A stretch of DNA of 61,140 nt from Alphaproteobacteria bacterium UBA3307 (GCA_002361365.1 DEST01000115.1:1-61140), one strand, 5' to 3'; shown: positions 2,984 to 35,172, counted from the stretch's first letter. Program-made: numbers and translations. Notes: generated from the letters alone by a model not told the origin.

Positions 2984-5900
2984 TCAGTATGCCGCACAAT
3001 ACGGATGTCTGTAATGAGTTTTCTGACGCTCGTCCTCTGCTTTTTTAGCCTCATTATACTTATTACCGACATCTATATCCGCTTGACGATTTTTAATTTT
3101 TGCTTCCAAATCTTCAAGCTCTTCCGTACCGTTGACGGCGACAATCTCATCGCTATCCGCTTGCAATACAGCAACCTTGTGCATCAATTTTTCGTACTTA
3201 TCGCGAACATTTGCAGACATACCGGCGCCCTTTGGCAAAGATTGCATCTTTTGTAATGCCATATCTATATATATGCCTTTTTCTTCATCAATAGTTTGGG
3301 CAGCCTGATTGTAATCTTGCTCATTGAGCAGATTAAAGTCGTCCGTAATTTCAAAAGTGCCTACCGAAATAGTATCTGCCAATTTTTGACGAATTTCAGC
3401 AATTTGCTTTTCCAACTTTTTCATTTGGTCTGCTACAATCGATTCATACTCCACTTGGTCTAAATAATCCCCAAACTGATTACGGTCATAAAGCACACGA
3501 TTTGCCTGATAAAACCGCATATCCGTTGTCATATCCGAACCGACATCTTCTGTCTTGTTAATTGCATCTATTGCTTTAAGTAAAGAATTATTAAATGTCA
3601 ACCGGTGTGGCAAAGAAGCTATACCCTTATTTCCGACAATAATGCCAGTACCAAATAGGGTACTTAAACCTGATGGCAAGTCAGGAATATAGGCCAAAAT
3701 TGTTCCCAATTCACTACCCTTTATTGCTGTTGTTGAAAGATTATCCTTAACCGGTCTATAGCCTCCGCCGACTTCTTCATCTGCAACAATATTATTACCA
3801 TCTTGATTCGTCAGCTTTATTCCGCGACACTGAGGAAGTTTATTTTGTTCATCAAAGCTGGCCGGACGAGCACTATGATAATACATCGGACCGTCATTTG
3901 TACTTACAACATCTATAACATTGTTCTCGCTCAAACACGGATATACTCCTGAACGCAGCAAAGTCTTTTCATTATCACCTACCAACAAATCGGCCATTTC
4001 TTCTTTTTCTCCCAACAGTTTGGCCCAATCTATTTGCTTTTGCACAAAAGCGTGGTGTTTCATTATATATTTCCATATCTCCGGAACGGTCGAAGCATAG
4101 GTTTTACCGCCATATTCCATTCCGCCGTATTGATTCAAAAACTTCAAAAAGCTCTCAACCGAAATATATACTTTTCTATTATTATCAACATCGTTACGGT
4201 CTGTATAGTATTTATCCATATTATTAAAATCCGCAACATCAAAATGGAAAATCTCACGTACCGGTGCCGAACTGAAGTTTACCGGAGATTTAGGAGCAGA
4301 AAAATCTTGCGGCAAGCCGATTGCGCCAACAAAATATTCGCTATCTTCTTGCGTGCAATTTTGTTCTTTGCAAACATCCGTAAAAATATTAAGCGCCGGT
4401 GTCAAATTTTCTTGCGTATCCGCTGCAAATTCGTGCATTTCATCGATAGCTTCACAATTTTTTAAGTCTGTAAGTTTTATTGCTGTGATTTTTTTAATCA
4501 TATCGTTATGAATTTGCTGAACTTTAGGCGCTGTTTCAACATAATAAAGCTCTTGAGTGGTCTTTAGTTTATCTATTTTTGCTTTTGCTTCTGATACCTG
4601 TTTTAGAGCATAATCGCGTACGCACTGAACCAAGCGGTTTGTCAAATCAAGCGGCAAAACTTCTTCAATAGCGCTATCCAATGCTTTTATTTTGCGGGCA
4701 ACGCGCAGATTTTCTACCAACTCATTGAACATAACCCCTGATTTTGCTTCTGCATCGCTCATATTCTTAACATATTGCACTCGTAATCTTTCCAAATCTT
4801 CTTTTATTTGAGCAACCTTTTCTTGAGCACGTTTGACGATGTTTTCATAGTTTTTAATCTTATTTTCAGCCGATGCCATCACACTTTTAGCCTGAGCCGA
4901 CATTTTTTCATTGTTTTGTCGGGTTTTATTAAATTCGGCATTTTGCGGAGAATCCTTACTTAGCTTTCGGCCGGCATAAATTTCTTGACTGTATTCAACT
5001 CCTTCGGTTGCCTCCGGTGTAGTGGCATCTGCACTTTTTACCATTTCGTGATTTTTATTATATTCCTGATTCAGCTTACTTATTTGGGTGTTAGCATCGT
5101 TGATTATTTTGTACCAATTTTGCAACTCTTTTTGCTTTGTTGCACGATTTTTGGCGTATTCTTCCCGAATTTTTTGGTACTCATCTTCTTCAGCTTTAAT
5201 AGCCGCCTCTATTTGCAAAGTTTCAAAGTTCTCAAAAGGCGTTTCTTTTACGGCTGATTGCGAAACAATAACTCCTCGTTGCTCTTTTAGAGAATCTGCC
5301 AAATCCTGTTTAAGTTCGGGAACTGACTTTTGCAATTCTTTCAACATTTTTTCGGCATCTTTACGTTGTTTATCCGGACTAATCGGCGGAACACCGGAAA
5401 TTGTTTTATACGGATATACCGGATTCAGATTAAGAGCAATTTTAAGCAAAATTTCCATCTGAGACATCTGACTTATATATTCTGCAATATTTTCATATTT
5501 GCCATCAATATATTGGTCATAAAAGTATATCTGGTCGGTCCACAGCGGAAATTTACTCTTGCGCGTTCCCCATTCATTAACACCGGTATCCAAATCCAGC
5601 GCCAGTTCTTTTGCTACTTCAGAACCGATGACCCAACGTATTAAACTATCTTTGCGCGCATTCTCTTTTTCTTCTTCGCCTTTTTGTTGGTCTTTCAAAT
5701 TAGAGGCCGTATCATCAGTCCCTTTATCCGACGTTTGAGTTGTAATTTCATCCAAAAGTTCTTCATCTGCGCTGTCATCTGAACTATGTGAAGTTACAAA
5801 CAAAGCGTCATCATCTTTTTTATTTTCTTCATCAGTATCCAAGCTGATTGTGGCACGAGTTACATATCCGTCTTCTCCGTTTTGCTCTTCCAAAACCTGT

Positions 5901-7459
5901 ACAGATGCTTCTGTATCTCCGGCGGCATCTTCGTCCTTAGCCTCGGTATATAATGTAAACAAATATTTGGCGATTCCGTTTGGCATCGAATCTGCGTGCA
6001 ATTCCGCCACATAGCAACTATGCGCTGAATCTCCGGCACACACTGTATCAAACAAACCATCAGAGGTCGCCTCGGAATCTATCGGTCTTTCCGGCTCATA
6101 ATGACAGGTGATTTGCCCGTTGCCGCTATAAATACAATTCTGCCCGAACCATGTGATATTGGAATCTGTATAGTGCGGTTTTAACATATTCATAATACAC
6201 TCTCCGGATTCCGCTAAATTCTGCTGTGCCAATTCCATCTGCTTTTGCGCACTGGCATAGTCTTCAAACACTTTTTTATACTCCGGCAAGGTTTGTTTCA
6301 TATTATGCATATGTTGTGCGCTGTTTAAATCTTGACGAATTTCTTGTAATATTTTTAAACTTGCCACATCGTCTTCTCTTTCATCAATTGCTGCCGTAAA
6401 ACTCTGCGGATTATTGGCATCTTCAAAATCACCTTTTATCACATTATCGCGATTGGTCAAATTTTCCTCATATTCAGCCAATTCTTCGGCGGCTAATTTT
6501 TCTTCTTCCGTAGATAAATCGGCAAAAGATACTTCCGCGCTGATATAATTATAGGCAGTGTTTTCTGATGGTGCTAAATATTTTTCCGGCAAAGATGACG
6601 TTTTGTCTAACGTTTTATCTTTATCCTTTTCTTTATCATATTCGCGGATTTTTGCCATTTTATCTATGCCGATAACCGCTTGATGTTGAGCGTGCATTGC
6701 CACCAACATCAAATTATATTTCATAATTGTTTCATAAAGTTTTTCAGCCTGTAACGCACTGTTCCAGAAACAAACTTGGTCTTCTTTAGTGTCATCACCG
6801 TTATCGGCTTGTTCCTGACAGCTTGTTAAGCCTATTTCATCACATTTTTCTCCCTCAACCAGACAACTTTCAATCATATCCAACTGACGTAGCATACCCA
6901 AATCTTCCATATTTTTGGAACCTTCTTTTGCCTCCGGTTTGCCATAAAGCTCTTTTTCCATTTCTATTGCAGTCAAATACATTTCCATTGTAGTATCCAT
7001 TTTGAGCTGCTCACCTAGTGTTTTGTATGCCTCTTTGACTTGTGCTTTATCTGACGGATATTGCATAAAAAGTTTAATAAAAGCATCTTTGACGGAAGCC
7101 TCATCTTTTAAATCAGCAATTGTACTGTCCTTAATGGTCCGCGCATAACTGATGATTTTTTTACGTTTTTCTTTGCTTTGTTTCCATTTATTAAATGCCG
7201 TTGTGCCCATTTTGGCGGCATAAGACATAGCCATTTGTTTTAAGGTGGTCATATCTGTATATTTTTCCAAATCCTTGCGAATTTCTTTTACTTGGTCATA
7301 ATAAGATACTGCCGTTGAAATTGCCGGCGCAACACACATCGGGCAAAATTGCGGAGAAAAAGGTATCAGCGGTGTAAAATCAGGCCAAATTGCGTGCGCA
7401 TTGTGTGTAAAACAAACACAAGTCAAAAACACCGATATAGAATAGATAAATTTTCTCAT
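2984..7459 (-). CDS. Giant secreted coiled-coil/acidic protein (1491 aa from MRKF start), unknown function, inside the T4SS operon
   Basis: ATG at 7459 preceded by AGGAGA. Signal peptide MRKFIYSISVFLTCVCFTHNAHA. Long K/E/Q/A heptad-like tracts and D/E/S-rich segments. No hydrophobic helices after the signal peptide. Confidence 0.7.
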   Translation of the reverse strand: MRKFIYSISVFLTCVCFTHNAHAIWPDFTPLIPFSPQFCPMCVAPAISTAVSYYDQVKEIRKDLEKYTDMTTLKQMAMSYAAKMGTTAFNKWKQSKEKRKKIISYARTIKDSTIADLKDEASVKDAFIKLFMQYPSDKAQVKEAYKTLGEQLKMDTTMEMYLTAIEMEKELYGKPEAKEGSKNMEDLGMLRQLDMIESCLVEGEKCDEIGLTSCQEQADNGDDTKEDQVCFWNSALQAEKLYETIMKYNLMLVAMHAQHQAVIGIDKMAKIREYDKEKDKDKTLDKTSSLPEKYLAPSENTAYNYISAEVSFADLSTEEEKLAAEELAEYEENLTNRDNVIKGDFEDANNPQSFTAAIDEREDDVASLKILQEIRQDLNSAQHMHNMKQTLPEYKKVFEDYASAQKQMELAQQNLAESGECIMNMLKPHYTDSNITWFGQNCIYSGNGQITCHYEPERPIDSEATSDGLFDTVCAGDSAHSCYVAELHADSMPNGIAKYLFTLYTEAKDEDAAGDTEASVQVLEEQNGEDGYVTRATISLDTDEENKKDDDALFVTSHSSDDSADEELLDEITTQTSDKGTDDTASNLKDQQKGEEEKENARKDSLIRWVIGSEVAKELALDLDTGVNEWGTRKSKFPLWTDQIYFYDQYIDGKYENIAEYISQMSQMEILLKIALNLNPVYPYKTISGVPPISPDKQRKDAEKMLKELQKSVPELKQDLADSLKEQRGVIVSQSAVKETPFENFETLQIEAAIKAEEDEYQKIREEYAKNRATKQKELQNWYKIINDANTQISKLNQEYNKNHEMVKSADATTPEATEGVEYSQEIYAGRKLSKDSPQNAEFNKTRQNNEKMSAQAKSVMASAENKIKNYENIVKRAQEKVAQIKEDLERLRVQYVKNMSDAEAKSGVMFNELVENLRVARKIKALDSAIEEVLPLDLTNRLVQCVRDYALKQVSEAKAKIDKLKTTQELYYVETAPKVQQIHNDMIKKITAIKLTDLKNCEAIDEMHEFAADTQENLTPALNIFTDVCKEQNCTQEDSEYFVGAIGLPQDFSAPKSPVNFSSAPVREIFHFDVADFNNMDKYYTDRNDVDNNRKVYISVESFLKFLNQYGGMEYGGKTYASTVPEIWKYIMKHHAFVQKQIDWAKLLGEKEEMADLLVGDNEKTLLRSGVYPCLSENNVIDVVSTNDGPMYYHSARPASFDEQNKLPQCRGIKLTNQDGNNIVADEEVGGGYRPVKDNLSTTAIKGSELGTILAYIPDLPSGLSTLFGTGIIVGNKGIASLPHRLTFNNSLLKAIDAINKTEDVGSDMTTDMRFYQANRVLYDRNQFGDYLDQVEYESIVADQMKKLEKQIAEIRQKLADTISVGTFEITDDFNLLNEQDYNQAAQTIDEEKGIYIDMALQKMQSLPKGAGMSANVRDKYEKLMHKVAVLQADSDEIVAVNGTEELEDLEAKIKNRQADIDVGNKYNEAKKAEDERQKTHYRHPYCAAY

Positions 7460-7469
7460 GGTCGTTCTC

Positions 7470-8753
7470 CTAAAAACCGCTATATACATTGGTAAAGCCG
7501 TTTATTGTATCGTTAATTTTATTTGTTGCCGCAGTTTGCGCCTTATTTTTCAGTTTTTTAAACAGCGTTTGCTTGGTCATTTTATAATCATCCAAATTAA
7601 ATGTTGTCATATCCTTATCATAATCTTGTAGTTTATATTTATCTCGCCAGAATGACATCTCATAGGTTGTTTCCATACGAATTTGCGCCAACAATATCTC
7701 CATATATCTTGCGGCTATTTTAGCATTTTGCAACTCCACACAAACACGCATTGCCGCAGCACCGAAAACACCTTGTGCCATTTGGGTTGCCGCGTCGGCA
7801 CAACCTAAGCTGCGCTCTTTTATTTCTTCAATACTGGTATAAGTTGTTACTGCCGTTTCCATTGCATTTTTGACAGCTTTATAATATTCTTGCTTTCTGA
7901 TTTTGCGCACGCGGTTCATATTTTCCGGATTTTCCGGTTCTGCTTTTTTCAAAAAAAGTTTATCTTGGACAAGTGTGTATAATTCGGTATTTTCTTCATC
8001 TTTTCCCTCTCTCTCAAAAAGTTTTTTTGTTTGCTTGCCTAACATATCAACAACTTCTTTTTCTGAAGTTTTGGCTGTCATCTCATTTATCTTTTTTTGC
8101 TGTGTCTTAATTTTTTCTTGCATTTTCTTATAGTTGGCATCTTCAGCAGCATTTTTTTCTTCTTCCCAAGCAATTTCTTTTTGCAACTTAGGAATTCCTG
8201 CCTCTAACTCTTCTAAGCGGGCTTTTTCCTCATCACTTAGTTCTTCTCCGGCCTTTTTACCGGTCAGACGTTGATTTAGCGCGCTGTATTCAGATTGCAT
8301 TTTGGCAAGTTCTTTTTCCATAGCGGCCTTACGTTTTAGTTTTTCTTGCTCCCGAGCTTGTAAATAAAGCTGCGCCTGCCGATATGAATTGGCATAATCA
8401 AGTTTTAGGTTTCCGAGTTCACCTTTAAGAGCGTTCCACATACCGCTTCCGGTAAAATCTCCGGCATAAAACTGCCCTTTTGCGGCACTAGTCACAATCG
8501 CGCCAGCATTTTTTTTGAGATATCCGAAAATCATTGCTCCTTCGCGTCCGGCAACTTTTTCAACTTTTGCATTTAAAATTTCAAGCTGCGTATTATATAC
8601 ATTTTCAATTTTTTCTTTGGTCTTACCTACTTTATCCGCTATATCAGCCACCGGTGCCGAAAAATCAAGTTTTGAAAATGCTTGTGCATTATGCGAAATT
8701 CCCAACAACGCACTTAGCATACAGAAAGCAAATAAATCTTTTAATCTAAACAT
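7470..8753 (-). CDS. Secreted coiled-coil protein (427 aa from MFRL start), T4SS-operon member of unknown function
   Basis: Signal peptide MFRLKDLFAFCMLSALLGISHNAQA with an upstream AGGAAAGGG. K/E-rich helical middle region. The track start at 8816 would overlap the upstream gene. Confidence 0.65.
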   Translation of the reverse strand: MFRLKDLFAFCMLSALLGISHNAQAFSKLDFSAPVADIADKVGKTKEKIENVYNTQLEILNAKVEKVAGREGAMIFGYLKKNAGAIVTSAAKGQFYAGDFTGSGMWNALKGELGNLKLDYANSYRQAQLYLQAREQEKLKRKAAMEKELAKMQSEYSALNQRLTGKKAGEELSDEEKARLEELEAGIPKLQKEIAWEEEKNAAEDANYKKMQEKIKTQQKKINEMTAKTSEKEVVDMLGKQTKKLFEREGKDEENTELYTLVQDKLFLKKAEPENPENMNRVRKIRKQEYYKAVKNAMETAVTTYTSIEEIKERSLGCADAATQMAQGVFGAAAMRVCVELQNAKIAARYMEILLAQIRMETTYEMSFWRDKYKLQDYDKDMTTFNLDDYKMTKQTLFKKLKNKAQTAATNKINDTINGFTNVYSGF

Positions 8754-8772
8754 TGTCTTATTCCCTTTCCTG

Positions 8773-10050
8773 TTATTTTTGTTGTCCGTTCGTATTTTGG
8801 GAGCTAGCGCTTTCATTCATTCCGCTGAGCTTACCTAGGCCGCTTTTGATACCACCATTGTTCAATAAATTATCAAACACCTGATTTGCGTCTCCGCCTG
8901 ATTTGCCAACATTTATTCCACCGCCGACAAAATCCCCGAGAGCTCCGGTTTCTGCACCGGCATTACCGCCAATCATTGTGCCGACCGAATTACCAACTCC
9001 GGACGTTACGCCACCCCAATTGCCGTTTTTGGCATTGTTGTATGCTGCACCGGCACCGCTTACACCTTGCTGAACCATATTGTTCAAATCTTTGTTGCCT
9101 TCTACCGCTCCGATACCGTATGCTTTTCCGGCAGAACCTAAAACACCGGCGTAATCTCCGCGTTTTAAGGCCTCCACGCCGGAATCCCATTGTTCGCGCA
9201 AGGCTAATACATCTACGGATTTACGACTTTTCGCTATATCCGCCGCTGTATCTTCCAACCCTTGAGTATCGACCTCGTCTTCATTTTTTCCGATAATTTC
9301 CGAGATATCGTCTTGACGACCTTGTGTTATCAGCATTTCATTAGAGGACTTGCGGTATGTTGATTCAAAGCGCAACAGTTGCATCCACAAATAGCTGGCG
9401 TGACGCGCCGTTTGCGCATATCTGAACTGAACGGTGCTGACATCTGAATTATTTGAAGTTTCATCGTTTTCTTCTGTTTTTTCTTCAGCATTTTCATCTT
9501 CGGAATCACCGGCTTCTTCTTCCATCATCTTTTTGCGCGTTACCAAAGCATTAGCATAGATAATCGCCAGATTTTCCACCATCAAATTATTATTACGCTC
9601 ATCTTGTGCTTTTGTGACCAATACATCATTATTAACATTGGTACGTTTCATATACGATTTGCCGACTTTTTGTTTCATTTCCGGCGAAGTATACGGGCCT
9701 AAAGAAATGGCAGTATTTATCCCCGGCAAAGTAACCGAACTCATCTGAGTATTGAAAAACTCTTTGGCCCCTGCCCATGCCGCATCTTTGGCATCTCCGA
9801 TAAATTTGTTAGCCTTAGCTTCAAGCTGATTTTTCACCGAATCTCGCAAATTACTAACTGCATCACGATTTAAGGCCAGCTCTTGCAGACTTACCTGTAC
9901 TCCGAGATATTGTTGCACCAAAGTATTGGCTTTTTCCTGAAATGTCTTTAATGCATCTTGGGCAATAGATAGAATATCCAAATCCGCGCGAGAGGTTTTA
10001 GGAAACAAAACCAACATTGCAAGCAAAGCTGTCATTATTTTCTTTTTCAT
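8773..10050 (-). CDS. Secreted protein (425 aa) with a VirB5/TrbJ-like helical N-terminus and a Gly/Asn-rich C-terminus
   Basis: Signal peptide MKKKIMTALLAMLVLFPKTSRA followed by DLDILSIAQDALKTFQEKANTLVQQY. Acidic tract in the middle. C-terminal tract GVSGAGAAYNNAKNGNWGGVTSGVGNSVGTMIGGNAG. Confidence 0.6.
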   Translation of the reverse strand: MKKKIMTALLAMLVLFPKTSRADLDILSIAQDALKTFQEKANTLVQQYLGVQVSLQELALNRDAVSNLRDSVKNQLEAKANKFIGDAKDAAWAGAKEFFNTQMSSVTLPGINTAISLGPYTSPEMKQKVGKSYMKRTNVNNDVLVTKAQDERNNNLMVENLAIIYANALVTRKKMMEEEAGDSEDENAEEKTEENDETSNNSDVSTVQFRYAQTARHASYLWMQLLRFESTYRKSSNEMLITQGRQDDISEIIGKNEDEVDTQGLEDTAADIAKSRKSVDVLALREQWDSGVEALKRGDYAGVLGSAGKAYGIGAVEGNKDLNNMVQQGVSGAGAAYNNAKNGNWGGVTSGVGNSVGTMIGGNAGAETGALGDFVGGGINVGKSGGDANQVFDNLLNNGGIKSGLGKLSGMNESASSQNTNGQQK

Positions 10051-10108
10051 TGTCCTTCTCCTCTCGTAATATATCTTAATCTGTTATCTTTTTTGCTCGC
10101 GATTTCCT

Positions 10109-27898: not shown

Positions 27899-28034
27899 AG
27901 TAACAAAATCTATAATATCATACGAAAATAAAAAAGTTTTACAATTTGCACTACCCAAAATGGGAATATAAACATTATTTTAACACTTTAGGTTTATTGT
28001 GGGGACAAAGAAATGTATATTTTTAAGGTGTCTG

Positions 28035-28478
28035 ATGAGATATATAAAACTGTTTTTGTCGGTGCTATGCGCCGTTTTTGTTGCCGCTTGTGCTTATATT
28101 GAGCGGCCCGGAGATTTGACACGCTGGCGTAAAACACGACCATACGCTCGTTGCCATCAAGAAACAACGGTTGCCGTTTATGACAAAGATGGAATGTACA
28201 CTCTGCCGGGGTGTATAGACTATGATATTGTCGATTTTCCGTATGTTGAAAATAATAAATATCCTGATGAAGTTGTATATCAAAATCTGAATTCTCGTGT
28301 TTTGGCATATTGTCGTGGAACTCCGGCACAAATAGAATATTGTGTAAGCCGATTGGAAGGCTCTTGCTATGTACCGCTTTCCGAGATTCCAAAGGTACCG
28401 GCTAAGGCAGATACTCTTAAACGCGGTGTCTTTCCTGAACGGCGTTGGCACGAAGGAGATACTGTTCCGAGGTGGTAA
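28035..28478 (+). CDS. Lipoprotein, unknown function (147 aa from MRYI start)
   Basis: Lipobox VAAC. Several Cys residues. Its stop is adjacent to the comM ATG (TAAGATG). Confidence 0.5.
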   Translation: MRYIKLFLSVLCAVFVAACAYIERPGDLTRWRKTRPYARCHQETTVAVYDKDGMYTLPGCIDYDIVDFPYVENNKYPDEVVYQNLNSRVLAYCRGTPAQIEYCVSRLEGSCYVPLSEIPKVPAKADTLKRGVFPERRWHEGDTVPRW

Positions 28479-28479
28479 G

Positions 28480-30003
28480 ATGTTAGCACGAATAAATACC
28501 ATAGCTTTTAACGGATTGAGCACGTTGGATGTAGATTTGCAGTTGCAAATTTCTTCCGGCATTCCGGCGTTCAGTATTGTCGGCTTACCAGATAAAACCA
28601 TTGCTGAAAGCAAAGAGCGCGTACGGGCGGCACTCAACACAATGGGGGTGGATTTGCCGGCTAAACGAATTACGGTAAATTTGGCACCTGCCGATTTGTT
28701 GAAAGAAGGTTCGCATTTTGATTTGCCGATTGCACTGGCTTTGCTTGCCGGAATAGGTATTGTTTCTGCTGAAGATGTGGCTGAATATGTGGTAATCGGC
28801 GAGCTTGGTTTAGATGGTTCAATTATGCCGGTCAACGGAGCTTTGCCGGTGGCAATTCACGCCAATCGATTAAACAAAGGGTTGATTTGTCCGGAAGCTC
28901 AGGGCGGTGAAGCCGTTTGGTCAGGACTCAAAAATATTATAGCTGCACCGACTTTATTGGCGTTGATTAACCATTTGAAAGGGATACAACAGTTACCTTT
29001 ACCGGAAATAAAGCGTAAAAAGACTAAAATTTCCGATTTAGATATGGCAGATGTTAAAGGACAGGAAACTGCAAAGCGAGCTCTCGAAATTGCTGCTGCC
29101 GGCGCACATAACCTTTTGATGGTTGGTACTCCGGGGGCAGGTAAATCTATGTTGGCTTCACGACTTGTGACTATTTTGCCGCCACTAACAACCGAAGAAG
29201 CTCTTGAAACTTGTATGATTCATTCGATTGCCGGTGAGTTGAAAAACGGCGAGATCAGCTTTGAACGCCCTTATCGCGACCCGCACCACAGCGCTTCGAC
29301 ACCGGCGCTTATCGGTGGCGGGCGCAAGGGTGTACCGGGGGAAATTTCACTCGCGCATAACGGCGTTTTGTTTTTAGATGAACTGCCGGAATTCAATCGG
29401 GCAACATTGGAGGCTTTGCGACAACCGATAGAAACCGGATATGTCACGATTTCACGCGTGCATTGTCATACACAATATCCGGCAAATTTTCAACTCGTGG
29501 CAGCAATGAATCCGTGTCGTTGCGGCTATTTGGGGCAAAGCGGACAAGAATGTACTCGTGCACCGAAATGTGCTGAAGAATATCAATCGCGAATTTCCGG
29601 GCCAATGATGGATAGGTTTGATATTCATATTCAGGTACCGCCGGTCAGTCCGTGGGATATGGCCGATGTCAAAAAAGGCGAAAGCTCAGCGCAAATTCGC
29701 CAACGCGTAGTTGCGGCGCGACAAATTCAGCAACAAAGATTTATTGAGTTGGGATATCCGCATTTGCACACAAATTCACAACTCAAAGGGGACATTTTGG
29801 AAGAAGTAACCAAGCTGGATTCTGACGCTAAAAGCTTGCTGGTAGGCTTTGCCGAAAAAATGAAGATGTCGGCACGAGCCTATCATCGCACTTTAAAGCT
29901 TTCCAGAACAATTGCGGACTTGCAAAATGAAAAAAATGTGTCTAAACTGCACATAGCAGAGGCGTTGTCATACAGATATGTTATGCCGTCAAAACAGGTA
30001 TAG
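28480..30003 (+). CDS. comM: ComM/YifB Mg-chelatase-like AAA+ protein
   Basis: N-terminal Lon-like domain (GLPDKTIAESKERV), Walker A GTPGAGKSM, Walker B LFLDELPEF, and C-terminal RAYHRTLKLSRTIADL. Confidence 0.9.
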   Translation: MLARINTIAFNGLSTLDVDLQLQISSGIPAFSIVGLPDKTIAESKERVRAALNTMGVDLPAKRITVNLAPADLLKEGSHFDLPIALALLAGIGIVSAEDVAEYVVIGELGLDGSIMPVNGALPVAIHANRLNKGLICPEAQGGEAVWSGLKNIIAAPTLLALINHLKGIQQLPLPEIKRKKTKISDLDMADVKGQETAKRALEIAAAGAHNLLMVGTPGAGKSMLASRLVTILPPLTTEEALETCMIHSIAGELKNGEISFERPYRDPHHSASTPALIGGGRKGVPGEISLAHNGVLFLDELPEFNRATLEALRQPIETGYVTISRVHCHTQYPANFQLVAAMNPCRCGYLGQSGQECTRAPKCAEEYQSRISGPMMDRFDIHIQVPPVSPWDMADVKKGESSAQIRQRVVAARQIQQQRFIELGYPHLHTNSQLKGDILEEVTKLDSDAKSLLVGFAEKMKMSARAYHRTLKLSRTIADLQNEKNVSKLHIAEALSYRYVMPSKQV

Positions 30004-30013
30004 GAGAAAACAA

Positions 30014-32665
30014 ATGAAACAGAACTTAAAAGCAATATACGCATTGAGCGCGGCACTTGTAGCCACAATGGCGGCAAATATTGCCACAGCCGATTCGGAT
30101 TTGGGCGCAAAGCCTTATACTCCGCAAGCTGTGACACGCCCGCAACCATTGGCACCGGCTCCGACTCCGGTTTATGTTAAGGAACAAGCGCAACCGGTTG
30201 AAACACAAGCTGAAGCGCCAAAGCCGGAGGTTGTATATTATTCCGCACCGGACGTACCTTATGCTGAGCCGGTCAGAGCCATGCCCCAACCTATTTTCCT
30301 AACCTCACCTGTTCCACCGGCTGTACCAAATGACTCTAACAAGTCTGGTCAAAAAAATTGCGGTTGCAAAAAATGTAACAGCGGTTGCAATAATATTCAA
30401 CCTGTTGCCGCACCGATTGTTGTTGCTGAGCCGACACCTATGCCGTGCCAAACTTGCGCACAACCGGCTCCGGTGGTGATTGAAGAACCGGTGGTAGAAG
30501 CACAACCGGCGCCGTGTGCAACCGGCAACTGCCCGCAGCTGCAGCCGTTGATGGTTGTTGAACCTGAACCGAAACCGGTAGTTGCTCCGTGTGATGGCGC
30601 AAAAGGCGAATGCAATCGTGTTCCGCCGGCAGATAAAGACGGCAGTTTATTCCCTGGTGGAAAATGCAGCAACTGTGCCGGCGGTAAAGCTCCGGCAACG
30701 CAAGTTGCAGAAGCACCTTGCAATGCCGCAAACGGCGAATGCAACCACGTTCCGCCGGCAGATAAAGACGGCAGTTTATTCCCTGGTGGAAAATGCCGCA
30801 ACTGTGCCGGCGGCAAAGCTCCGGTAGCTCAAGAGACAGAGGCACCGTGTACGGAATGTGCTCAAGTTCAATCCAATGTTCCATATACAATTTCCATTTA
30901 TCAATCTATGCAGCATAATTGTTGTCAAATGGCTTCCATCGCGCTTGACCACGTGGATTTCCGTTTGGCTGACAAAGGTTCAAGCGGACTTTACAGCAAC
31001 CGTATCGGCGCATACAGATTCCGTATTTTCGGTTGCCGCAGAATGAATAAAGATGCACGCCTGAACAGCGGCAGAATCTTAGAAAAAAATATCAATTTCC
31101 AAAGCGCATTTGCCAACGCAGTCGATAGCTGTTACAAAGTTTTACCGGCGCCGAGAGATTTGTGCTTGCAAGCTGTTCCGACCGAATTGCCGGAATATGT
31201 CCTAACTGCTGAAATTACCGATTATTTTATGAATATTTGTGATGAATATGATTGGGGCAAAGCCGAGAAAAAAGAACAACGCAGCGGTAATTCAGAAATT
31301 ACGGTAACTTGGCGTTTGATGGATTTGACCAAAAATATTGTTTATTGGAAAGGTGAGACTTCCGGCTATGGTGAGATTTATGAAGGAGAACCGGAAGGCG
31401 AAACCAAATTGATTGAACGCGCATTTGCCGATGCCGCATCTAATTTGCGCGCTATGACCGGTTTTGAAGACCAATTATTACAGCGTGTTCCTGACCAAAC
31501 AATCTCCGCTCAGCGTTGGGCGCTGATTGAAGAAGAACGCGCTCTGAATCCGATTAAGTGCGGATACCGTAAAGAATATGAATGCAGCAATAGTTGCGTG
31601 ATTAACGGACCTAAATCCGATATTTCTAAGTGTCTGCCTACTTGCGGTTGCGCTACCGGTACCTGTGGACAAGTCGAATATGTTGAGCCGACTCCGGCAC
31701 CGGAACCGATAACAGCTCCGTGCGGAACAATAGTCAACGCAGAAGGTGTTAAAGTTCCGGCCCCGTGCGAAACAGGTGCGGTCAAAGTTGAGCCGCTCAA
31801 AGTTAAAACAGAGCCACAACCGATTCCGGTACAGGTTACTGCCGCTACTTGTTACGATGAACACGGTAGTTTTGTAGAAAGCGCAACTTGTCGCCGTGTG
31901 GACGATACTTGGATTGATACCGGTGATGTCACCGCTCTGGATACCTTGTGCATTAACACAACTGACCCGTGTCAAAAACTTACTCAAGAAGAAGTGTATC
32001 GTTTGCGCGCATCGGTTGTACAAATTGAAAGTCCGAATGGTCGCAAAGGTGCGGGATTACTTATTTCTGACCGCTTTATTCTGACTTCGGGAGATTTGGT
32101 TGACCGCGGCGCTTACAGCTATAAAGTAAAAACTATTCGCAATGCGGAATACACTGCACGAGCCGTACGTTTGAACCCGCAAAAAAATACAGCCTTGCTG
32201 ATGCTTGACAGCAGTGTGGAATATTCTCCGCTTGCACTCAATCTGAACTTACCGGAAGTCAACAGCGGCGGATTTTTAACTCTCGGACTGCTTGATGTTG
32301 TTGACTTTAAAAACGGAGAAGATTATTTGGAAAACAAGGCAAAAATTGCCGGATACCGTTATACGGAAGATAAAGGTGCCGAAATTTTGGTAAATACTTT
32401 TATTCAAAACGTTACCGTCGGCGGCGCGTTGTTTGACCAGAACTGCACCATTAGCGGTATGGCGCATTCCGGAATCCGTACAAACGACGGAATGGACGTT
32501 TATGTTCCGACGGAAACGGCGTTGCGTAGTCTCGGAATCAGTATTTGCGGACACGAATATACCGCACCTAGCCCGTGGCAACAGACAATATATAAGCCGT
32601 TGACACAGCAAATTACGGTTATTCCGCAAGCGCCGGAAGTTATGCCGGTTAAGGATAGAAAGTAG
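30014..32665 (+). CDS. Secreted 883-aa mosaic protein: Pro-rich and Cys-rich repeats, a CsgG/LpoB-like alpha-beta module, and a C-terminal trypsin-like domain lacking the catalytic triad
   Basis: AGGAG before the ATG at 30014. Signal peptide ending NIATA. 2 x 43-aa Cys repeat. Mid module: LTAEITDYFMNICDE...ITVTWRLMDLTKNIVYWKGETSGYGE. C-terminal domain: ASVVQIESPNGRKGAGLLISDRFILTSGDLV...NTALLMLD...VTVGGALFD. Confidence 0.6.
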   Translation: MKQNLKAIYALSAALVATMAANIATADSDLGAKPYTPQAVTRPQPLAPAPTPVYVKEQAQPVETQAEAPKPEVVYYSAPDVPYAEPVRAMPQPIFLTSPVPPAVPNDSNKSGQKNCGCKKCNSGCNNIQPVAAPIVVAEPTPMPCQTCAQPAPVVIEEPVVEAQPAPCATGNCPQLQPLMVVEPEPKPVVAPCDGAKGECNRVPPADKDGSLFPGGKCSNCAGGKAPATQVAEAPCNAANGECNHVPPADKDGSLFPGGKCRNCAGGKAPVAQETEAPCTECAQVQSNVPYTISIYQSMQHNCCQMASIALDHVDFRLADKGSSGLYSNRIGAYRFRIFGCRRMNKDARLNSGRILEKNINFQSAFANAVDSCYKVLPAPRDLCLQAVPTELPEYVLTAEITDYFMNICDEYDWGKAEKKEQRSGNSEITVTWRLMDLTKNIVYWKGETSGYGEIYEGEPEGETKLIERAFADAASNLRAMTGFEDQLLQRVPDQTISAQRWALIEEERALNPIKCGYRKEYECSNSCVINGPKSDISKCLPTCGCATGTCGQVEYVEPTPAPEPITAPCGTIVNAEGVKVPAPCETGAVKVEPLKVKTEPQPIPVQVTAATCYDEHGSFVESATCRRVDDTWIDTGDVTALDTLCINTTDPCQKLTQEEVYRLRASVVQIESPNGRKGAGLLISDRFILTSGDLVDRGAYSYKVKTIRNAEYTARAVRLNPQKNTALLMLDSSVEYSPLALNLNLPEVNSGGFLTLGLLDVVDFKNGEDYLENKAKIAGYRYTEDKGAEILVNTFIQNVTVGGALFDQNCTISGMAHSGIRTNDGMDVYVPTETALRSLGISICGHEYTAPSPWQQTIYKPLTQQITVIPQAPEVMPVKDRK
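30584..30841 (+). repeat. Tandem 129-bp repeat x2 (43-aa Cys-rich unit)
   Basis: Units APCDGAKGECNRVPPADKDGSLFPGGKCSNCAGGKAPATQVAE and APCNAANGECNHVPPADKDGSLFPGGKCRNCAGGKAPVAQETE. 34 of 43 residues are identical by eye. Confidence 0.9.
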
Positions 32666-32700
32666 ATTGATTAACTCATACAAAACAGGAGAATTATTAA

Positions 32701-33267
32701 ATGCTAAAGATAAATCAGACCGGACGTTCGATGATTGAAATGCTTGGAGTGTTGGCAATCATCGGGGTGCTGACTGTCGGCAGTTTCGGTATTGTCGGCA
32801 AAGCACGGCAACAATATCAGATTTCGCAAGCACTTTCCGAAACCTCTAATCTGATTGCCAGTGCGCGTAAAATGAGTTGCGACTATGAGAGTGCCTACGG
32901 TTCTTATACTAATATGCTCTATCAATCGCGAGAATATCCGGATGGTGTTGTGCCGGAAGTGAGTGATGGTAAAGCTGAATCGTTTACCATAACTTCAGAT
33001 ATTAAGCTCAAAATCGAAGCCGGAGATGACAACACTTTTATCGCCACGCTTTCCAATATTCCGGAAGATGCTTGTGTGGCGTTGGCTTCGGCTGATTGGG
33101 GAAATCGGCGTTTTAATGGTTATATCGGTGCAACTGTCGGCGGTAAAAGTTCCAATAAAGATAATATAATGGACCCGTCTGATGCGGCCGATGGCTGTGA
33201 TGCTACTAGCGGCAAAGAGCCGGAATTGGTTTTAACTTATAGTGCGTGTGTACGCGGAGGAGAATAA
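32701..33267 (+). CDS. Type IV prepilin (188 aa) with a short leader and an atypical +1 Arg
   Basis: MLKINQTG|RSMIEMLGVLAIIGVLTVG, with Gly at -1 and Glu at +5. C-terminal Cys pair (DACVAL...DGCDA). Confidence 0.8.
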   Translation: MLKINQTGRSMIEMLGVLAIIGVLTVGSFGIVGKARQQYQISQALSETSNLIASARKMSCDYESAYGSYTNMLYQSREYPDGVVPEVSDGKAESFTITSDIKLKIEAGDDNTFIATLSNIPEDACVALASADWGNRRFNGYIGATVGGKSSNKDNIMDPSDAADGCDATSGKEPELVLTYSACVRGGE

Positions 33268-33271
33268 CATT

Positions 33272-33955
33272 ATGAAAAACAGCAAACAAACACAAAACGG
33301 ACGTTCGATGATTGAAATGCTCGGAGTATTGGCAATTATCGGGGTATTGACCGTCGGCGGATTTGCGTTAATCAGTAAAATGAGCAATGCGCATCGCGCA
33401 AATGAAGTGATTGATGAAATCGGCGTGTTAGCAAACAAAACTCGTACCGTATTTCATGAATTTGTAGAAGACCATACCGCTGATGATGGCACCATCACTT
33501 CAAACCCGATGACAATGTATGTATATAAAGCAAGAGCTTTTCCGGAAGGTTTGGACTGTGCCAACAAGAAAAACGGAGAATGTGCAATGGATAATTCCGA
33601 TGAATCCTCATTTGCCCTTTCGGATAAAAATGATGTAAAGTTTGAAATTCAGCAGCGACGCAGTAATAAGAAAGTTGATTATTTTGTGCTCAAAATTTCG
33701 CAGCTGACAGATGACTTGTGTATGGCTGTGGCGCAATCTACTTGGGGTTCTCCCTCAATTAACGGCTATGTCGGGATTTGTGTTACTGACAGCTCAAAAA
33801 ACAGTTGTTCTTACGACACACTTATTCCGCAAGATATGAGCGTTAACGTTGTTACCGACAATATAGCCAAAGGCGGGGCAAAACTTGCGCTTGATGCAGC
33901 GGCAGATGCTTGTGCCAGTGAAACAGATAATGTTGTTTATCTGACCTTCCGTTGA
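33272..33955 (+). CDS. Type IV prepilin paralog (227 aa from MKNS start)
   Basis: GGAGGAGA before the ATG at 33272. MKNSKQTQNG|RSMIEMLGVLAIIGVLTVG. C-terminal Cys pairs. Confidence 0.8.
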   Translation: MKNSKQTQNGRSMIEMLGVLAIIGVLTVGGFALISKMSNAHRANEVIDEIGVLANKTRTVFHEFVEDHTADDGTITSNPMTMYVYKARAFPEGLDCANKKNGECAMDNSDESSFALSDKNDVKFEIQQRRSNKKVDYFVLKISQLTDDLCMAVAQSTWGSPSINGYVGICVTDSSKNSCSYDTLIPQDMSVNVVTDNIAKGGAKLALDAAADACASETDNVVYLTFR

Positions 33956-33976
33956 TACTGTTAAAAGTAAAATATT

Positions 33977-34005
33977 AAACGGCACCCGCAAAAAAGGTGC
34001 CGTTT
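33977..34005. terminator. Bidirectional intrinsic terminator between the convergent pilin and PilT-like genes
   Basis: AAACGGCACC-CGCAAAAAA-GGTGCCGTTT, flanked by A and T runs. Confidence 0.75.
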
Positions 34006-34029
34006 ATCTTATATTCATAATGCTTAATA

Positions 34030-35010
34030 TTATTTTGTGGCATCAACATTATCAAACAACGGTCGCCCTTGTGCCATACGCGTCATTTGCATTTCAATGG
34101 TGGTCGAAAGGTTGATTTTACCGGTTTTGATAATATTTCGTGCTTGATCGCCCATTGTGGTTATCGGGTTGGCAAACAAAAATTGCACCACCGGACGCTT
34201 TTGCGCTGTGCCGACAAGTTGTTGATGAATAACTCCCAAAATACCGCGAGAAAGTAAGTCAAACGCCAATTCCTCACTCATTTCACCGGCGGCAGAAGCG
34301 TGTTTGACAATGGCATCAATGGCATCGGCCACATTATTGGCGTGAATGGTAGAAAGCACTAAGTGACCGGAAGTTGCCGCACGCAAACACTGACTGGCTG
34401 TTGCCGGTGTTCGAATTTCTCCCACCATAATATAGCGCGGGCGTGAACGCAAAGCCGAACGTAAAGAAGCTCCCCAATCGTCATTTATCGGCTGTGTTTG
34501 TTTGCAACATCCGATTGAACCATTGACAGCTTTATATTCTCCATCAAGCGGCATTTCAAACGGGTCTTCAATGGTGTAGGCAAAACCGCCGTTGCGAATT
34601 AAAAATTCTCTAAGCAAACTGGAAATTGTGGTGGTTTTACCGGAACCGGTGGCACCGCCGAGCAAAATCAGCCCGCTGGCGTGTCCCAAACCGGAAAGAT
34701 ATTGTATCAATGCCGGCGGATAACCTAAAGATTTTAAATCCGGCACACGCTTCGGCATTTTACGCATACAAAACATTACGCCATACATAGACATTGTGCG
34801 TTCCACACGGAAAAAATATCCTTCATACACAACCGAATAACTGGATTTACCCTTAAAAGAGCGTTCAAGCAAGTCATAAAACGTATCAAAATCTTCCGGT
34901 TCAATTTGTTTAAGCCCGCTTTCCGTACGTTTATCCGGTACAAAAACCAGCTTATCCGGTGTGATGTAAATATCTGAATAAAACTCATTTTCATCATTGA
35001 TGCGTGTCAT
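34030..35010 (-). CDS. PilT/PilU-like hexameric ATPase (326 aa)
   Basis: AGGAGA before the ATG at 35010. Walker A GGATGSGKTTT, VGEIRT, and His box GHLVLSTIHANN, which is closer to PilT/GspE than to VirB11. Confidence 0.75.
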   Translation of the reverse strand: MTRINDENEFYSDIYITPDKLVFVPDKRTESGLKQIEPEDFDTFYDLLERSFKGKSSYSVVYEGYFFRVERTMSMYGVMFCMRKMPKRVPDLKSLGYPPALIQYLSGLGHASGLILLGGATGSGKTTTISSLLREFLIRNGGFAYTIEDPFEMPLDGEYKAVNGSIGCCKQTQPINDDWGASLRSALRSRPRYIMVGEIRTPATASQCLRAATSGHLVLSTIHANNVADAIDAIVKHASAAGEMSEELAFDLLSRGILGVIHQQLVGTAQKRPVVQFLFANPITTMGDQARNIIKTGKINLSTTIEMQMTRMAQGRPLFDNVDATK

Positions 35011-35172
35011 AACCATTCTCCTTAGTGATAACAAAAAAATCTTACGTCTATATAGTGTAGCAAATTTATTTTAAAATAGCGTAAAAATTCTTAATTGATT
35101 AAAAACTTGAATATAAATGTTGTCAGCGGCTTAAAAATATTTTATATTCGGCTTAGCTTATAAGGTTGGACG

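Follow-up and report, generated by a model that had tools for sequence, protein, structure and literature searches.

To our knowledge, few bacterial pseudoproteases retained under selection have been described, these are mostly unexplored, and the best studied is MamO of Magnetospirillum. MamO is an HtrA-family pseudoprotease that lost catalysis and was repurposed for a non-proteolytic role (PMC4794232). Here we describe a gene located at positions 30014-32665 of the plus strand in a 61,140-nucleotide stretch of DNA from Alphaproteobacteria bacterium UBA3307 (GCA_002361365.1 DEST01000115.1:1-61140; the whole stretch is referred to as the window), which an earlier note, made from the sequence alone, had described as encoding a secreted mosaic protein with an apparently dead trypsin-like domain. 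Its 883-amino-acid (aa) product, hereafter the UBA3307 protein, is a pseudoprotease that arose independently and combines two domains in an arrangement not described before, a predicted CsgG/PelC-like module (module 1) followed by an S1C domain.

Like MamO, the UBA3307 protein carries an alphaproteobacterial HtrA-fold domain that is devoid of catalysis and kept under selection, in a genome that retains an active HtrA paralogue, as in the MamE/MamO pair. Unlike MamO, a protein of magnetosome biomineralisation with a TauE-like membrane domain and a surface di-His metal site, it arose independently, and its genomic context is clearly not a magnetosome island. The other nearest functional analogue is the S1C-like domain of RsgI9, which we take to be a non-catalytic sensor module; Foldseek ranked the S1C-NTF2 ectodomain of RsgI9 from Clostridium thermocellum (7sjy) first for the C-terminal domain, at E = 1e-9, although RsgI9 is an NTF2-fused, membrane-anchored anti-sigma factor of a Firmicute and the identity is just 19%. 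DegP, DegQ and DegS (HtrA, MEROPS S1C) have the same protease-domain fold, but the UBA3307 protein lacks both the triad and a PDZ domain, and its N-terminal module is a different one. For that module, the predicted fold resembles those of CsgG, PelC, DUF330 (XCC0632) and GNA1162, and the ancestral forms of the protein were lipoproteins as well; in contrast to that group, the UBA3307 protein shows no sequence-level family match, no lipid anchor and no evidence for CsgG-type hairpins or a ring.

The nearest relatives are short lipoprotein S1C proteases of ~430-460 aa found in Shumkonia mesophila, Telmatospirillum and Skermanella, which appear to be experimentally uncharacterised. They contain the same two homologous modules in the same order, with the same invariant Cys pair, and share with the UBA3307 lineage a common ancestral neighbourhood (comM ... 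his ... gene ... hslVU); the clade of the UBA3307 protein branches from them as a single clade. The short proteases keep His-Asp-Ser, a lipobox and a 15-aa linker, whereas in the UBA3307 protein the triad positions read D/N/V, the lipobox is missing, the linker measures 110 aa and a Pro/Cys-rich extension of 272 aa is present. Together these proteins form a clear natural series, from active lipoprotein protease to dead form to anchorless form with a Cys-rich stalk, running from cultured Rhodospirillales to uncultured gut and rumen Alphaproteobacteria, and may reveal the steps by which a protease of the envelope turns into a protein for binding or scaffolding. The work also defines an uncharacterised two-module architecture, which public records carry just as 'S1C family serine protease', a generic label, or as 'hypothetical protein'.

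The C-terminal domain is an S1C-fold pseudoprotease

As judged from alignments and a predicted structure, the C-terminal domain (aa 641-850; 31934-32563, plus strand) was confirmed as an S1C/HtrA-fold pseudoprotease in which all three catalytic residues are replaced. The motifs that had been aligned by eye with DegP-type proteases, ILTSGDLV (residues 689-696), NTALLML (725-731) and VTVGGALFD (800-808), were found in the translation exactly as quoted. Intact relatives read T-N-x-H-V-V at the His position, RDVAL at the Asp position and GNSGGPL at the Ser position, against T-S-G-D-L-V, KNTAL and VTVGGAL, respectively, in the UBA3307 protein. Alignment with the intact relatives placed N725 (codon 32186-32188) in the Asp column and V802 (32417-32419) in the Ser column; the His column corresponds to D694 in an ungapped alignment or to L695 in the HMMER alignment, which contains a one-residue insertion (32093-32098; all former triad codons on the plus strand), and the stretch around the former His, ILTSGDLVDRGAYSY, has no His under either alignment. 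The GNSGGP nucleophile/oxyanion motif reads VTVGGA; the GG-x-L-x-D loop is retained, with G803 and G804 among the invariant residues of the homologue alignments.

Pfam and NCBIfam searches with the UBA3307 protein alone yielded just sub-threshold Trypsin_2 and MarP matches, the former at E = 0.0065 and 17.7 bits, below the cut-off of 27.6, and a whole-genome search did not pick up Trypsin_2 at this locus. Homologues from other families of the class matched Trypsin_2 at E = 2.8e-31, 1.3e-27, 1.7e-15 and 1.5e-9, compared with 6.5e-3 for the UBA3307 protein. A profile including the intact relatives matched HtrA/DegP/Deg1/MucD structures at 2e-28, and DegP, DegQ and DegS were matched by the family profile at 1e-22 to 1e-28. 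A profile built from the dead clade only had no match among PDB sequences at E ≤ 0.01, so the link to HtrA needs either the intact relatives or the fold. A phmmer search of PDB sequences with the UBA3307 protein gave only chance matches to the NHERF PDZ (E about 0.1), lying inside the protease fold, and no PDZ domain was detected in Pfam scans of the protein or its homologues.

The AlphaFold2 (AF2) model of residues 290-883 had a predicted local distance difference test score (pLDDT) of 75.7, and of about 85 within the S1C-like domain itself. RsgI9 was the best Foldseek chain for this model, followed by MarP (3k6z), MucD and DegS; for the DegS and MarP domains, the target-normalised template modelling (TM) scores were about 0.7. 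The domain thereby shows the chymotrypsin-like double beta-barrel fold of S1C peptidases. The graded series of homologues, the profile match to HtrA/DegP and the AF2 fold match make the protease relationship secure, and the earlier description of a trypsin-like domain with its three catalytic residues replaced is borne out by the alignments, the 2e-28 profile match and the S1C fold.

Membership in the active S1C peptidases was considered separately and rejected: the triad and the GNSGGP motif are both missing, and the Trypsin_2 score lies under its threshold. Within the dead long forms, a subclade (P0018, P0022, P0050 and P0081) has Ser back at the nucleophile position (TVSSGGAL), in the combinations D-N-S or A-N-S, still without His.

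Homologues and order of events

An exhaustive phmmer search against 1.84 billion cluster representatives (E ≤ 1e-3) recovered just 209 relatives, comprising long forms of 580-1176 aa and short forms of about 430-460 aa, with matches spanning two stretches that correspond to both modules. In public records, the long forms are annotated as 'hypothetical protein' in Alphaproteobacteria metagenome-assembled genomes from rumen and from the guts of horse, reindeer, mouse and human (Hadza, Nepal), under gut/rumen lineage labels such as 'Azospirillum sp. 51_20', RUG and RGIG. The short forms, which come from Rhodospirillales including Shumkonia, Telmatospirillum and Skermanella, are annotated as 'S1C family serine protease'. 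A relative is encoded by 182 species-level genomes; the two-module family was found in about 24 of 301 sampled genomes of the class, and generic DegP-like matches were nearly universal.

The triad was tabulated for 298 homologues holding both modules, of which 143 were intact and 155 had lost it. The two groups differed in median length (444 aa for intact His-Asp-Ser vs 725 aa for triad-lost), in the presence of a lipobox (83% vs 11%), in the median linker (15 vs 127 aa) and in the median N-terminal extension (42 aa vs 161 aa, the latter with 8 Cys). Conservation extends to the residues that took the place of the triad: Asn stands at the old Asp position in 143/155 triad-lost proteins, and the patterns DNV (n = 85) and DNI (n = 32) dominate, followed by DNL (n = 7); Asp and Asn jointly occupy the first two triad positions in 128 of the 155.

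A maximum-likelihood tree built from 85 representatives gathered the long dead forms (33/33) in a single clade (Shimodaira-Hasegawa-like approximate likelihood-ratio test support of 100; stem length 0.78). Within this clade the triad states form a ladder, SDL to NGL/GDL/RGL and KDL, then GNL, DNL and finally DNV/DNI; the NGL/GDL/RGL and KDL forms keep the lipobox and have no N-terminal extension, and the DNV/DNI forms are devoid of a lipobox. The order of events shown by this ladder, as reconstructed from the aligned states, starts with the loss of His and Ser together with linker growth, continues with the change of Asp to Asn, and ends with the loss of the lipid anchor and the gain of the Pro/Cys-rich extension. 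The identity and history of the UBA3307 protein as a former lipoprotein protease are near certain.

Three short, lipobox-bearing proteins placed outside the dead clade on long branches (P0085, P0100 and P0126) have also lost triad residues (GGA, QDA and AGP), indicating that loss of catalysis recurred sporadically in the family.

Retention under purifying selection

A family homologue was present in all the genomes of the genus (36/36), and the open reading frame (ORF) was intact in every genus genome searched. Column identity among 26 long forms was 0.64 in module 1 and 0.66 in the dead protease domain. Against the closest species, the dead domain showed a proportion of nonsynonymous differences (pN) of 0.10 and of synonymous differences (pS) of 0.67; the corresponding ratio of substitution rates (dN/dS), about 0.06-0.10, is an upper-range estimate because dS is saturated (above 1.4), and the result that pN is far below pS holds. 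The dead domain is thus under strong purifying selection, and the presence in the whole genus, the conservation and the low pN indicate, by comparison of sequences, that the dead protein is functional. A separate bona fide Trypsin_2 protease (123 bits) is kept in the genome, so the proteolytic HtrA function is supplied elsewhere.

We regard it as highly improbable that the protein is still a hydrolase, working through a non-canonical active site, or else a decaying relic without function. An unusual active site would be in line with the conservation of the replaced positions as Asp/Asn and with the few clade members that have Ser at the nucleophile (DNS), but it is at odds with the change of GNSGGP to VTVGGA and with a ILTSGDLVDRGAYSY stretch free of His; decay is contradicted by the intact ORFs across the genus and by pN being far below pS, and neither frameshifts nor a dN/dS close to 1 were seen.

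The upstream module

Module 1 (aa 299-530; 30908-31603, plus strand) is an alpha/beta domain which, modelled alone with AF2, reached a pLDDT of 86.4 and a predicted TM-score of 0.82, with three roughly 19-residue strands packed on helices. Its Cys pair, C341 and C409, was invariant across 77/77 aligned homologues, dead and intact alike. Foldseek searches against the PDB returned CsgG (4uv2/4uv3) at E = 2e-6, the DUF330 protein XCC0632 (2iqi) and PelC (5t11), as well as GNA1162, HpaA and CT253, with E values ranging from 2e-6 to 1e-4, a probability of 1.0 and TM-scores of just 0.35-0.48; Cj1090c was also among the matches. Nearly all of the top 50 matches belonged to one fold class, with probabilities of 0.97-1.0, but their TM-scores were 0.25-0.49 and their root-mean-square deviations large. 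No match to CsgG, LpoB, TolB_N or DUF799 was obtained at E ≤ 1 when module 1 and its 77 homologues were searched with Pfam. The model therefore supports assignment of module 1 to the CsgG/PelC-type lipoprotein fold class and to nothing more specific, and it is at this level of fold, without a Pfam family match, that the CsgG/LpoB/TolB-N-like module previously suspected here finds support.

Folds of the CsgG/PelC class are typical of periplasm-facing outer-membrane lipoproteins, and several of them form rings. Such a predicted fold agrees with the lipobox that the ancestral short forms carry. A CsgG-type channel was rejected as a candidate, because nothing pointed to transmembrane hairpins and the TM-scores were low.

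Signal peptide, cysteine-rich regions and C-terminal tail

The ORF is intact, with 883 codons and an ATG preceded by AGGAG. An assembly artefact was ruled out, because many metagenomes obtained independently (gut, bovine and sheep) contain near-identical DNA. A putative Sec-type signal peptide (aa 1-26; 30014-30091, plus strand) was read from the translation: the N-terminus, MKQNLKAIYALSAALVATMAANIATA followed by DS, fits a signal peptidase I signal with an AxA site and a predicted cut after ATA, without a lipobox as judged by eye, and no Cys occurs among the first 115 residues.

The Pro/Cys-rich repeats claimed in the earlier note were located in a protein containing 39 Cys and 78 Pro in total. 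The N-terminal extension (aa 27-298; 30092-30907, plus strand) holds 18 Cys, mostly in CxxC or Cx4-6C pairs, and 17% Pro. The inter-domain linker (aa 531-640; 31604-31933, plus strand) holds 8 more Cys and is variable (column identity 0.28), Cys/Pro-rich and predicted disordered (AF2 pLDDT <50). Tandem Repeats Finder detected an in-frame tandem duplication at 30594-30846 (plus strand), made of two copies, 88% identical, of a 129-bp (43-aa) unit, APC-x6-C-NxVPPADKDGSLFPGGKCxNCAGGK, each repeat carrying Cx6C...CxxC. In the best-matching metagenome DNA run, contigs break at this internal repeat, yet they fit two copies; a 48-bp shared piece of the repeat has about twice the flanking depth, and the copy number may differ between strains.

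The extension was the least conserved part of the protein, with pN of 0.18-0.36 vs 0.07-0.2 in the folded modules, evolving two to three times faster than the dead domain. Its length among homologues varied from 6 to 378 aa, neither the basal pseudoprotease forms nor any intact form has it, and a genome search found no paralogue of it. In contrast, the C-terminal tail (aa 851-883 and stop codon; 32564-32665, plus strand), which reads SPWQQTIYKPLT...APEVMPVKDRK and includes the motif SPWQQTxYKPxT..., was as conserved as the folded domains (column identity 0.66), and it was predicted disordered (pLDDT <50 at fragment residues 568-585).

These regions bear on the possibility that the protein is active in metal or redox chemistry, with the cysteines acting as Cys4 zinc knuckles or in thiol-disulfide exchange and the dead fold serving as a carrier. 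The 18 Cys in paired motifs of the extension, the 8 of the linker and the Cx6C...CxxC repeats would suit such a role, as would one homologue matching Pfam DnaJ_CXXCXGXG at E = 0.0019, and the switch of MamO to metal binding offers a precedent (PMC4794232). We nevertheless consider this reading very doubtful, given that the Cys-rich parts are the least conserved, differ greatly in length and are absent from basal triad-less forms, and that it is the folded modules and the tail that are conserved instead.

Proposed function

The ancestor combined a CsgG/PelC-like N-domain and an S1C/HtrA-type protease domain in one envelope lipoprotein, whose lipid anchor would later have been replaced by a cleavable signal peptide and a long Pro/Cys-rich stalk, probably disulfide-bonded or metal-bound. 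The resulting protein would cleave nothing any longer. Its conserved protease-fold groove, with Asp/Asn/(Val/Ile/Leu) at the old triad positions, is predicted to bind peptide or protein; inactive DegP still holds substrates, behaving as a chaperone or holdase, and provides a model for such binding. The CsgG/PelC-like module, by its modelled fold, probably docks or self-assembles at the outer-membrane side of the periplasm, and the conserved disordered tail probably represents a short docking motif.

Taken as a whole, the statement that the UBA3307 protein is a dead, exported and selected descendant of a two-domain envelope lipoprotein protease, acting in the cell envelope as a non-catalytic peptide-binding or scaffold protein, is one that we hold with slightly more confidence than doubt. 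The pseudoprotease half of the pseudoprotease binding module originally proposed stands, with its triad replaced and its S1C fold, and the binding half is retained as the conjectural part of this statement. Several points weigh against it. The binding or scaffold function, the oligomerisation, the location and the state of the cysteines are what we infer. The TM-scores of module 1 are low, so that its matches speak for a general fold class only. DsbB (PF02600) was not detected in the genome, in which a VKOR-type oxidant was not searched for; two DsbA-like Thioredoxin_4 genes were found (G000:C36:100614-101114 and G000:C2:21315-21779), and oxidative folding of the cysteines is therefore plausible, not assured. 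Lastly, the probable co-transcription of the gene with two pilin genes in the genus, where no strong terminator separates them, leaves room for a pilus role.

Gene neighbourhood and the pilus question

The gene lies 10 nt after the comM stop and 35 nt before the ATG of the first pilin gene, in agreement with the short gaps reported previously. The comM/yifB gene (28369-30003, plus strand) encodes a Mg-chelatase-like AAA+ protein (Pfam Mg_chelatase, 5e-94) and is preceded by a small lipoprotein gene, a 159-aa ORF (27999-28478, plus strand) identified by tblastn synteny, which precedes comM in the fetched clade loci wherever the contig extends far enough and has the C-terminus ...RRWHEGDTVPRW. 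Downstream are two type IVb (bundlin/PilS-like) prepilin genes (32701-33955, plus strand), with weak Pfam Bundlin/PilS matches and the sequence GRSMIEMLGVL. No strong terminator was found between comM, the pseudoprotease gene and the pilin genes, the sole strong one being at 33976-34006. Three metatranscriptome runs of the source sample gave no contigs on 27900-34100, a result that is uninformative and not evidence of silence.

Neighbours were counted in 80 species-level loci, considering those with enough flank and separating an own-genus tier (≥50% identity) from other genera (38-49%). The comM gene was immediately upstream in all the loci of both tiers (41/41 and 29/29; 70/70 in total), whereas a pilin gene was found within 400 nt downstream in 39/42 loci of the own-genus tier vs 1/26 of the other genera, one of the other-genus loci having hslVU in place of pilins. 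Adjacency to pilins is thus a feature of one genus and not of the family, as far as the compared loci indicate, and the pilin pair is, on the same comparison, a later insertion in that genus. In distant relatives, two arrangements were observed. In one, comM is followed by an opposite-strand HIT gene, then by the family gene, a thioesterase gene and hslVU; in the other, HIT and hisEFAHB lie on the opposite strand between comM and the family gene, and hslVU comes after it. Loci representing the ancestral neighbourhood are L015 (G054, 5101-12831) and L013 (G037, 3041-8033). The family therefore occurs away from pili, in a HIT/his/hslVU context.

These counts bear directly on whether the UBA3307 protein is a pilus-associated factor, that is, a pilotin-like, adhesin or pilin-handling protein of a type IVb pilus, co-expressed with the two downstream prepilins. 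Besides the 35-nt gap, the position of the terminator and the adjacency kept in the own-genus tier, a TcpQ/secretin/PilO/ATPase/platform operon (pilL-N-O-P-Q-R-like, from Pfam matches) lies just upstream in the window, PilO is present in 35/36 genus genomes, and CsgG/PelC-type folds occur in secretion-associated lipoproteins of the outer membrane. Against these, pilins follow the gene in a single locus outside the genus, where comM always precedes it, and the ancestral context is HIT/his/hslVU; nearly all genus genomes carry the gene and the assembly operon on separate contigs; one genome has the family without PilO (G054) and three have PilO without the family (G053, G057 and G060); and the signal contains neither a G|xxxxE prepilin motif nor a lipobox, which sets the protein apart from conventional pilins, tip pilins and pilotins. 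The genus genomes also carry a multi-copy, dispersed pilin family, as indicated by paralogues at several sites, which makes adjacency to one pair weak evidence. The pilus-associated adhesin, pilotin-like factor or tip protein put forward in the earlier note is consequently not supported at the level of the family, and we consider a pilus-associated factor unlikely.

A form of recruitment confined to the genus may also be envisaged, to the neighbourhood of the type IVb pilus and type IV secretion. The protein would then be a periplasmic, possibly ring-forming (CsgG/PelC-like) holdase, co-transcribed with the two pilins from the comM operon, whose Asp-Asn-Val pocket captures a pilin or effector on its way to the secretin. 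We judge this distinctly unlikely; if true, it would add a new, protease-derived class to the pilus accessory proteins.

The constancy of the upstream neighbours suggests a different possibility, namely that the lipoprotein, ComM and the pseudoprotease form a module of which the latter is the envelope arm. One task for such a module might be to take up or process DNA in natural transformation, and the pilins would have joined it in the genus. ComM and type IV pili are both related to transformation in other bacteria, and the order lipoprotein-comM-pseudoprotease was conserved in 70/70 dead-clade loci with enough flank, the genes being spaced by about 10 nt at the least and about 500 nt at the most. 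In the intact relatives, however, comM and the protease gene are split by the opposite-strand his operon and HIT, or in some cases unlinked altogether; the adjacency is most simply explained as inherited synteny, the intervening his/HIT block having dropped out in genomes of 1.2-2.0 Mb, and ComM is cytoplasmic whereas the UBA3307 protein is exported. A comM-linked module is accordingly quite improbable in our estimation. The case recommends caution in deriving function from adjacency, as the pilins are here confined to one genus and comM is linked to the gene through inherited synteny, which genome reduction has compacted.

Some minor features of the region were also noted. The ORF of the 159-aa lipoprotein overlaps the longest comM ORF by 110 nt; because comM homologues align from residue ~38, the comM start is probably near 28480, right after the lipoprotein stop. 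Bundlin/PilS-like paralogues were seen at extra sites within 10 kb, on both strands, in seven same-genus loci (L017, L021, L022, L035, L053, L056 and L073). In the window, a PilT-like ATPase gene (34030-35034, minus strand) converges on the pilin genes, with a common bidirectional terminator at 33976-34006 that has a 12-bp stem.

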